Below, one piece after another: positions 49,122-50,139 of a stretch of DNA of 64,000 bases. Numbering within the stretch: the first letter of the stretch is position 1; each line of letters opens with the position of its first letter. The notes beneath the pieces were generated by a model. The model did not search any database. It was given only the letters and a program-made list of their open reading frames with translations, and was not told the DNA's origin. The translations under genes and the position numbers were made by a program. The stretch is from an uncultured Bacilli bacterium (GTDB taxonomy: Bacteria; Bacillota_I; Bacilli_A; RF39; UBA660). The DNA lies in the NCBI GenBank assembly GCA_910587725.1, contig CAJUNG010000001.1, positions 1,698 to 65,697 of the forward strand, read 5' to 3'.

Positions 49122-49364
49122 ATGATTGAAAAAAATGATGTAATACAATTTACAGAAAACCACGAATGGTGTGGTTGCTTGGGCATCGTTGAAGAAACAA
49201 AAATATGCAGAAGTGAAAGATTAGACTATGATACAAGATACATGATTGGTGTACCTATACCAAAACAGGGAACAGCTTTTATATATGTTATGGAAAGTGA
49301 AAAAGCTATAGAAAAAATAGGAAAAGCTGTACTAGCAATGAAAGATGGTGAAGATGATGAATAA
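49122..49364 (+). CDS. hypothetical prophage protein
   Basis: An 80-aa ORF. Confidence 0.4.
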   Translation: MIEKNDVIQFTENHEWCGCLGIVEETKICRSERLDYDTRYMIGVPIPKQGTAFIYVMESEKAIEKIGKAVLAMKDGEDDE

Positions 49365-50139
49365 TAGTCAAGAAGTAGTATATTTTGTAAATGAAAATAA
49401 TTATGTTAAGAATATGAATGAGTTTGTTCAAAAAAATAAGATAAAAAACTTTGGATTTGAAAATGAATCAGAAGAATTAATTAAGGGCTTGAGTAGATTT
49501 AAAAAAAACAATGTTTTAATTTTAGGAAAAGCTGGAATTGGCAAAACGGCATTAGTAGAAAAATTATGTGAAATGATTAATGATAAACAAGTACCAAATA
49601 TTTTGCAAAATAAAGTAGTATTAGAAGTATCTTTGGGAGGAATTTTAGGCGGAACAAAATATCGTGGTGAGTTTGAAGAAAAGGTACAAAAGTTAATCGA
49701 CTTTGTTACTAGAAGAAATGATGTGATTTTATTTATTGATGAGGTACATAATTTAATGTGTTGTAATAGTAACGATGGGAATATTGGGTTTGGCGAGATA
49801 TTGAAACCATATCTGGCAAGAGCAGATTTTTCTTTGATTGGTGCAACCACTGTTAAAGAATATGAAGAATATATAGTCAAAGATAGTGCTATTGATAGAA
49901 GATTTTTTAAGTTATCTATGGAAGAACCAAATTCTGATAAAACAATTAATATCTTACAAAAGGTAAAATGTCAATATGAAAAACATTACAATATTAAATT
50001 AACTAAAAATGACATTATTAAAGTTGTAGAACTTTCTAAAATGAGAACAGGAGCTTTTCCCGATAAAGCATTCGATGAGTTAGAAGATTATTGTTATTCG
50101 AAGTCAACACAAATAGAAAAGCAGAAATATGAATCATAA
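49345..50139 (+). CDS. stand-alone ClpA/ClpB/ClpC D1-like AAA+ ATPase domain protein (phage-encoded)
   Basis: Walker A LGKAGIGKTALVEKL, KYRGEFEEKVQKL, Walker B ILFIDEVHNL, LKPYLARADFSLIGATT, and the sensor/arginine region DSAIDRRFFKL. This is near-collinear with Clp D1. There is no N-domain, no D2 and no ClpP-binding loop. Confidence 0.7.
   Translation: MVKMMNNSQEVVYFVNENNYVKNMNEFVQKNKIKNFGFENESEELIKGLSRFKKNNVLILGKAGIGKTALVEKLCEMINDKQVPNILQNKVVLEVSLGGILGGTKYRGEFEEKVQKLIDFVTRRNDVILFIDEVHNLMCCNSNDGNIGFGEILKPYLARADFSLIGATTVKEYEEYIVKDSAIDRRFFKLSMEEPNSDKTINILQKVKCQYEKHYNIKLTKNDIIKVVELSKMRTGAFPDKAFDELEDYCYSKSTQIEKQKYES

Follow-up and report, generated by a model that had tools for sequence, protein, structure and literature searches.

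All characterised class I Hsp100/Clp proteins are, to our knowledge, double-ring machines, in which the first AAA+ module of the chain (D1) forms one ring and the second (D2) the other, and the contribution of each ring has been studied mainly by means of engineered truncations. D1 belongs to the classic AAA clade in the Erzberger and Berger/Iyer classification, in which Vps4, katanin and the FtsH ATPase work as single rings. The gene considered here lies in a stretch of 64,000 nucleotides from the genome of an uncultured Bacilli bacterium (contig CAJUNG010000001.1; hereafter the window), and specifies a protein of 264 amino acids (aa), the window protein, which consists of D1 alone and is encoded by a temperate, siphophage-like gut phage. 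Hsp100 proteins of phage origin are already represented by the ClpA/ClpB-like ATPases of jumbo phages (PHROG 4871), such as those of Klebsiella phage K64-1 and Yersinia phage fHe-Yen9-04, which provided the best PHROG and BFVD matches to the window protein; these proteins differ from it in having 647-840 aa and two rings, share only 33-43% identity with it, and come from large lytic phages of Proteobacteria. That part of a class I Clp ATPase can occur naturally by itself, and have its own role, is shown by mycobacterial ClpC2, described (PMC10030653) as a partial, N-domain-only homologue of ClpC1 that acts as a decoy; ClpC2 is chromosomal and has no ATPase, whereas the window protein keeps D1 with its catalytic residues. 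A phage early product reported to act on a Bacillota Clp system, namely ClpCP, is SPO1 gp53 (PMC6873191), but gp53 is small and adaptor-like and is not an AAA+ homologue, and any contact of the window protein with Clp is hypothetical.

The window protein is a stand-alone Hsp100 D1 module of a Bacilli-type, ClpC/ClpE-like unfoldase, which ends just before the M-domain would begin. An earlier, sequence-only reading had described it as almost collinear with the first nucleotide-binding domain of the Clp unfoldases and had proposed a profile search and a structure prediction, both of which identify it as Hsp100 D1. The NCBIfam ClpA profile was matched with an E-value of 1.3e-62 over positions 169-406 of 734 and the ClpB profile with 1e-60 over positions 157-399 of 853, while the ClpV, ClpK and ClpG profiles gave values of 1e-46 to 1e-53. 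These scores of about 200 bits lie far under the whole-protein equivalog cut-offs of 993-1417 bits (212 against 993 for ClpA, 206 against 1232 for ClpB; likewise 180 against 885 for ClpV1), because only one module of the chain is present. The best PHROG match was to PHROG 4871 ('ATP-dependent protease'; 4e-66, profile positions 176-422 of 764), and in Pfam one AAA core (43 bits) was recognised together with the Hsp100-type lid AAA_lid_9. The best solved relative was Bacillus subtilis ClpC (PDB 3j3s, residues 184-397, 4e-52). The structure that AlphaFold2 predicted from the family alignment (predicted local distance difference test score, pLDDT, 92.3; predicted TM-score 0.88) was aligned by Foldseek with D1 of ClpB, ClpC, ClpC1 and ClpA with a query TM-score of 0.84 and a root-mean-square deviation of ~2.0 A over ~242 residues, and the best 50 listed PDB fold matches were all Hsp100 chains aligned over D1. 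Phage clamp loaders and DnaC-like proteins, which the earlier reading had named as the competing affiliation, were matched in PHROG at only 4e-5 and 2.5e-4 against 4e-66 for the Clp type.

The likeness to D1 of the class I proteins ClpC, ClpE, ClpB and ClpA (PDB 3j3s, 7abr, 6qs4 and 8a8u) extends collinearly from the pre-D1 linker as far as the lid helix 'PDKAxDxxxE', with 45-50% identity to Bacilli Clp D1 and with identical Walker A and B motifs, KYR pore loop, sensor-1 and double arginine finger. The motifs previously picked out by eye are all present, namely Walker A, K105-YRGEFEE, I131-DEVH-135, L153-KPYLARA (residues 153-160) and D180-SAIDRRF-187, and the D1 signature is complete (GxxGxGKT, KYRGEFE, hhhhDE, LKPxLAR, the ATT of sensor-1, RRF, and the PDKAxD lid helix). 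Conservation was assessed on an alignment of 30 short members of the family described below, in which G61, G64, G66 and K67 of the P-loop (the same in cellular D1), R107 and G108 of pore loop 1, D132, E133 and H135 of Walker B, and F187, like the arginine fingers that precede it, are invariant; Y106 of pore loop 1 is kept in at least 90% of the members. The catalytic and mechanical positions are thus all common to the family and to cellular D1, and the family-specific changes are few: loss of R38 of 'IGR', H215Y, R236G and D247E. The tripeptide at residues 147-149 resembles the ClpP-docking motif, but [IV]G[FL] occurs there in only about five of the 30 members, confined to the subclade of the window protein, and it sits in the pore-loop-2 region, where confidence in the model is lower (pLDDT ~71); the resemblance was rejected as coincidence.

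The lack of an N-domain, of a second AAA domain and of the ClpP-docking loop, likewise claimed from the sequence, also held. The single AAA match in Pfam and the restriction of the ClpA match to the D1 part of the profile were accompanied by the absence of any Pfam match to Clp_N in the window protein, of any tblastn match in the window to the N-domain, M-domain or D2 of the nearest full-length Clp, and of D2, the ring that carries the docking loop [LIV]-G-[FL], from the window protein. In these respects it differs from the class I proteins ClpC, ClpE, ClpB and ClpA, as it does in being phage-encoded, and it differs from the ClpB/Hsp104 disaggregases in having no coiled-coil M-domain, the element that couples these to DnaK/Hsp70. 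The chain ends ~13 residues past the lid helix PDKAFDELE, where the M-domain would start. Every truncated variant, whether D1 only, Clp_N plus D1 or other, similarly stops shortly after the C-terminal helix motif, whereas ClpB and ClpC go on into the M-domain.

A truncated architecture and a modest whole-protein Pfam score (AAA, 43 bits) might be taken to indicate a decaying remnant of a captured clpC or clpB gene, or a member of another AAA clade, such as the clamp loaders or DnaC, that shares the Walker motifs alone. The chance of either is negligible, and both are excluded by the data. The frame is intact across ~55 clusters of relatives with a common C-terminal end, the ratio of nonsynonymous to synonymous substitution rates (dN/dS) is well below 1, and tblastn revealed no remnant of an N-domain, M-domain or D2 within ~8 kb of 14 relatives; a split gene or pseudogene was rejected on the same grounds, there being no flanking remnants in the window or at the 14 loci. 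Affiliation to clamp loaders, DnaC, TniB, sigma-54 activators or STAND proteins was rejected because these gave generic P-loop matches of 1e-4 to 1e-6 (1e-4 to 1e-5 for the clamp-loader and DnaC profiles) against 1e-62 for ClpA, and because the fold is that of D1.

A search of 5.8 billion proteins yielded ~55 clusters of D2-less relatives of 249-441 aa, with 43-79% identity to the window protein. The family is defined here by a D1 that ends at PDxAxDELExYC, by the absence of D2, by phage context and by membership of a monophyletic clade, and the window protein shows all four features. Some members have a Clp_N domain added at the N-terminus (P0048, P0043, L006, P0277-P0291) and others an N-terminal extension of unrelated sequence (P0014, P0054/55); at the C-terminus both kinds stop where the short members do. 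The family is under purifying selection, with pairwise dN/dS of 0.15-0.35 at dS values near saturation. Fourteen loci were examined, the window together with five contigs from IMG/VR and eight from metagenomes. All 14 are phage contigs in which the D1 gene points the same way as the early genes; in the majority, no more than a few small open reading frames (ORFs) separate it from the terminase genes, which it usually precedes. The replication modules vary from locus to locus (RecT and a metallo-beta-lactamase (MBL)-fold protein in the window; D5-type primase-helicase, SNF2 with ERF and SSB, or VapE-type elsewhere), and even the closest relative, in L178 (77-79% identity), has a wholly different replication module upstream. 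All-against-all BLAST of the ORFs within 4 kb of the gene at the 14 loci identified no partner or adaptor gene common to the family, only lineage-specific neighbours. Given the varied replication modules and the lack of a conserved neighbour, the D1 gene behaves as a self-sufficient accessory gene.

The Clp_N-D1 protein P0048 is encoded (L176/L177, positions 7001-8278) on a contig of ~179.6 kb that recurs in gut metagenomes of the Hadza and is evidently a large phage; the gene stands in a run of small ORFs that includes Thg1-like, Tad3-like (anti-Thoeris), AAA_28 and metallophosphatase genes. An exhaustive profile search revealed other unusual architectures in P0264, P0265 and P0267, which include tandem D1-D1 proteins of 552-749 aa and a 923-aa protein in which a D1-type AAA is followed by a second AAA and a C-terminal FtsH-type Peptidase_M41. 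D2-less or rearranged D1 architectures (Clp_N-linker-D1, D1-D1 and D1-AAA-M41) are more varied than has been appreciated.

The origin of the family was examined with a neighbour-joining tree of the D1 core (residues 37-250 of the window protein; 40 bootstraps) that included 40 truncated proteins, 43 diverse full-length Clp D1 sequences from GTDB and IMG/VR loci, and five stand-alone D1 proteins, at least three of which are from bacteria of the candidate phyla radiation (CPR; Patescibacteria). The truncated phage-type proteins, short and long, group together in 40/40 bootstraps as one clade, within which the Clp_N-D1 forms branch basally. Its sister group consists of full-length Clp of Massilimicrobiota, Longicatena and other Erysipelotrichaceae/Bacilli. 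This branching fits a stepwise history in which a Bacilli clp gene was captured, the M-domain and D2 were lost, and the N-domain was lost thereafter. Identity to the nearest cellular D1 among the matches listed (median 49%, with 50% in the case of the window protein) does not exceed that within the family (53%), which indicates that the family is old and does not consist of recent captures from hosts. The matches listed from a scan of GTDB genomes were full-length Clp only, a result that is uninformative on absence of the family from isolate genomes. A 249-aa 'AAA family ATPase' of Bacillus paralicheniformis (P0097) was considered as a named relative and excluded, since the tree places it outside the clade and its chain stops sooner. 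Long chromosomal contigs of Patescibacteria/CPR also encode stand-alone D1-type proteins, of 309-367 aa (P0076, P0086, P0091); together with the unnamed ~315-aa P0059 and P0066 they form a clade separate from the phage family, so that D2 must have been lost independently at least twice.

That the protein does not correspond to a described phage function, as had been suspected, was borne out by database searches. A tblastn search of INPHARED (50,697 phage records) disclosed no D1-only phage protein, and all its matches were below 60% identity; three length-checked, unannotated top-ranked matches proved to be full-length ClpC of 818-822 aa, and most of the annotated rows were jumbo-phage ClpA/B-type proteins. 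BFVD contained only phage Clp proteins of 647-764 aa and one 146-aa fragment, with no D1-only protein, and no description of a phage stand-alone D1 was found in the searchable full-text literature. The fold and the chemistry are already known; what is new is the architecture, the exclusively phage context at the examined loci, and the implied single-ring action. For the latter the closest work-alikes are Vps4, katanin/spastin and the ATPase ring of FtsH, which act as a single hexameric ring; each subunit contributes one AAA module, with double arginine fingers and an aromatic residue in the pore loop, and there is no peptidase-docking loop. These proteins carry N-terminal targeting domains (MIT, membrane anchor) that are absent from the 264-aa protein, and their sequence kinship with it is at the level of the clade only.

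The role of such a module has to be judged from what its sequence has conserved. Arginine fingers act in trans and so are constrained only in an oligomer; similarly, the pore-loop aromatic residue is constrained only if a polypeptide is gripped, and the Walker B glutamate only if ATP is hydrolysed. Since the family keeps Walker A and B, sensor-1 and both arginine fingers without variation, and the pore-loop tyrosine nearly so, an active, oligomeric, threading ATPase is favoured over a passive decoy. On balance we lean towards a ring-forming, ATP-driven unfoldase or remodeller that would be independent of ClpP and would be made with the early/middle genes. Its subunits would assemble into a ring, hydrolyse ATP, and pull a polypeptide through the central pore by means of the conserved KYR pore loop; without the D2 ring and the ClpP-docking loop, the target would be unfolded or disassembled rather than handed to ClpP. 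The gene would be transcribed with the early/replication genes, just ahead of the late/packaging genes, and a host or phage protein complex would probably be remodelled during lytic growth. Retention of Clp_N on basal relatives that lack D2 (P0048, P0043, P0277-P0291) implies that a lone D1 ring can handle substrates. Several points weigh against such a machine. Isolated D1 of ClpB/Hsp104 oligomerises poorly, D2 being what drives hexamerisation there (in ClpA, it is D1), so a homo-hexamer of the phage D1 is not guaranteed. Three residues near-universal in cellular D1, R38, H215 and R236, are altered in the phage family, the last two to tyrosine and glycine respectively. Finally, the short form has no substrate-binding domain recognisable by Pfam, and no adaptor gene travels along with it at the 14 loci.

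It is also conceivable that the phage D1 enters the D1 tier of host ClpC, ClpE or ClpB hexamers as a poison or modulator subunit, and so disables or re-tunes proteolysis or disaggregation. The family is sister to the full-length Clp proteins of Erysipelotrichales/Bacilli, which supplied the closest cellular D1 among the matches listed, its interface arginine fingers and sensor residues match those of cellular D1, and gp53 of SPO1 sets a precedent for phage manipulation of ClpCP (PMC6873191). Yet with ~50% identity to that closest cellular D1 there is no gain over the 53% seen within the family, which forms one old clade rather than a series of recent captures from each host; a poison subunit would need neither the pore-loop tyrosine nor the catalytic Walker B glutamate, both of which are kept under purifying selection; and relatives with a Clp_N of their own suggest autonomous handling of substrates. 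We consider mixed hexamers unlikely. Still harder to reconcile with the strict conservation of catalytic and pore residues is a passive sponge, which would mimic the D1 surface of host Clp in order to titrate a host factor (a defence sensor, a regulator, or else a toxin or inhibitor) and would not need to turn over ATP. The short form has no obvious substrate-recognition domain, and partial Clp homologues acting as decoys do exist, as ClpC2 illustrates (PMC10030653). On both counts of residue conservation and architecture, however, the sponge seems very improbable, for it is strict conservation that would not be expected of it, and the domains on which a regulator could be caught are missing. 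The known ClpC regulators MecA, McsB, phospho-arginine and cyclomarin bind to the N- and M-domains.

A counter-defence or superinfection-exclusion ATPase, whose ring would dismantle a host immune complex or which would serve as a prophage defence ATPase of the IetA type, appears improbable. The D1 gene does lie in variable accessory stretches of early regions, and two relatives share a contig with a Tad3-like gene (2.7 kb away from the Clp_N-D1 gene in L176) or with an Acb2/Tad1-hairpin protein (~7 kb away in L087). These associations are few and loose, and the MBL-fold neighbour in the window falls under the Apyc1 threshold (19.5 against 50 bits), so the proposal of an anti-defence island was rejected as too weak. 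IetA of the IetAS system is an AAA+ protein of similar size, and PADLOC returned a weak match to it (7e-10); the window protein is far closer to Clp D1, and the IetA match reflects similarity shared by AAA proteins in general, falling short of the ClpA match by 50 orders of magnitude. Membership of this defence system was rejected on that PADLOC value, on an NCBIfam match of 3.5e-5 with 23 against 510 bits, and on the lack of an adjacent IetS-like protease; the gene lies, moreover, in the lytic early string and not in the lysogeny module. In a broader form, the protein might be an effector of host takeover or counter-defence, a minimal, ClpP-independent single-ring Hsp100 that would unfold a specific host protein, such as a regulator or a defence complex, or invade host Clp hexamers; this we regard as doubtful.

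A natural D1-only lineage suggests that the D1 ring can be a useful machine by itself, and gives a compact system in which to study D1 mechanics; the finding should be solid, and unexpected, for specialists in AAA+ proteins. The protein is also a candidate for a new means by which phages of gut Bacilli, among them the temperate one of the window and another of ~180 kb, might manipulate protein homeostasis, and potentially a new type of phage effector, in that it is an enzyme, unlike the small inhibitors and adaptors SPO1 gp53, T4 PinA and T7 gp4.5. If it acted on host Clp or on immunity proteins, an unfoldase would be added to the tools of host takeover and anti-defence, and were the effector role to prove true, no natural Hsp100 machine made of D1 alone would have preceded it, and phage effectors would gain a new class, derived from a chaperone ring. 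If it only chaperoned a phage process, it would represent a modest extension of AAA+ diversity.

The features of the window are collected in Table 1. Three in-frame ATG codons are candidates for the start of the D1 gene, at 49345, 49354 and 49357. The true start may be that at 49354 or 49357: GGTGA stands directly upstream of these two, and the public gene call starts at 49354, to give 261 aa. The overlap with the upstream 80-aa ORF makes translational coupling of the two likely; homologues of this ORF were found at only two other family loci, at different positions. The 47-aa ORF downstream had no counterpart in the other family loci in a direct comparison of the 14 loci. Because the flanking ORFs overlap it and no terminator-like site was found between it and the upstream early genes and small ORFs, the D1 gene belongs to a tightly packed string of genes on the plus strand. 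The small ORFs at 47698-49364, which had been taken for a run of morons, do exist, but the label is unsupported, as they form part of the same packed string with no terminator-like site.

Table 1. Features of the window and of the D1 gene, with positions in the window
Feature	Position	Strand	Basis or remark
Stand-alone Hsp100 D1 module gene	49345..50139	+	ORF list, profile searches, model; 264 aa
Walker A / P-loop G61-K-A-G-I-G-K-T68	49525..49548	+	read from sequence
D1 pore loop 1 K105-Y106-R107-G108, substrate-gripping aromatic	49657..49668	+	aligns to KYRGEFE of ClpC
Walker B I128-LFIDEVH-135, catalytic E133	49726..49749	+	family alignment and comparison with cellular D1
I147-G148-F149 tripeptide, pore-loop-2 region	49783..49791	+	resembles ClpP-docking motif; not conserved
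Sensor-1 region G166-A-T-T169	49840..49851	+	A167, T168, T169 invariant (n=30)
Arginine fingers R185-R186, trans-acting	49897..49902	+	invariant (n=30), as in cellular D1
C-terminal helix motif P239-DKAFDELEDYCY-251	50059..50097	+	helix 240-263 in model
Upstream 80-aa ORF	49122..49364	+	overlaps D1 gene start; not a conserved partner
Downstream 47-aa ORF	50129..50272	+	11-nt overlap with D1 stop; coiled-coil-like by eye
tRNA-Ser/tRNA-Gly	38509-38793		prophage begins beside these
Integrase	38861-40012	-	
Lysogeny module: integrase, DUF4352 protein, ImmA-like M78 peptidase, cI-like helix-turn-helix repressor	38861..41794	-	
cI-like repressor paired with ImmA-type M78 metallopeptidase	40931-41794	-	
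Early/recombination genes: SMC-like AAA_23 ATPase, AbrB/MazE-like protein, RecT, MBL-fold hydrolase	43944..47729	+	same gene string as D1 gene
SMC/RecF-like AAA_23 ATPase, 634 aa	43944-46108	+	
MBL-fold hydrolase	46956-47729	+	directly after RecT
Late module start: putative terminase large subunit, portal-position ORF, minor capsid protein	53423..57825	+	
Minor capsid protein	56326-57825	+	
Candidate tRNA-Gly, anticodon ACC	58029-58102	+	ARAGORN
Host surface protein, 1780 aa	3720-9062	+	

The placing of the gene in the early region of a temperate phage was confirmed by the order of its neighbours. The left 38 kb of the window is host DNA of a low-GC (~31%) member of the Bacillota, with genes for PolC, DnaE, HtpG (whose closest named counterpart, that of Candidatus Ventrenecus, is only 66% identical), UvdE and a dockerin/M60 surface protein, and the prophage, for which megablast found no nucleotide match in INPHARED, begins beside the tRNA genes with its integrase and lysogeny module. 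A divergent Cro-like helix-turn-helix gene follows the cI-like repressor, and is followed in turn by the AAA_23 ATPase and the recombination genes. After the MBL-fold hydrolase come five small ORFs, the D1 gene, seven further small ORFs and the putative terminase genes; the D1 gene therefore stands at the end of the early region, since the late module starts after it. The putative terminase was identified from its position and its homology to the ORF that precedes the portal gene in L082, and the portal-position ORF from position alone; neither has a Pfam match on record. The last of the seven small ORFs has a C-terminus that reads as helix-turn-helix-like, again with no Pfam match.

The pairing of a cI-like repressor with an ImmA-type metallopeptidase suggests that the prophage may be induced by repressor cleavage in the ImmA/ImmR style, rather than under RecA- or Clp-dependent control. 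The idea that a truncated Hsp100 might interfere with Clp-dependent proteolysis of the CI-like repressor finds no support here, as the repressor lies beside an ImmA-type metalloprotease, and induction may not depend on Clp.

The MBL-fold hydrolase carried a precomputed Pfam flag 'Anti-Pycsar Apyc1', which was rejected on its score; with a Lactamase_B_2 match of 2.5e-18, the protein probably belongs to the recombination module as a generic nuclease or hydrolase of the MBL fold. The AAA_23 ATPase gave weak PADLOC matches to LmuB, PtuA and AriA (~1e-9 to 1e-13) and could be either a recombination-associated ATPase or a phage-borne, defence-like module; between it and RecT is encoded the AbrB/MazE-like protein, of 85 aa. 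In the late module, the minor capsid protein combines a Phage_min_cap2 domain (8e-44) with a C-terminal ADPrib_exo_Tox domain (3e-10), and on these domains could be a virion-delivered ADP-ribosylating effector. Between its gene and the next ORF lies the candidate tRNA-Gly, with its unusual anticodon. In the host DNA, the 1780-aa surface protein contains dockerin, fn3, M60-like (enhancin) peptidase and F5/8 type C domains, and to judge from these it resembles an enzyme with which a gut bacterium would degrade mucin or glycoproteins.

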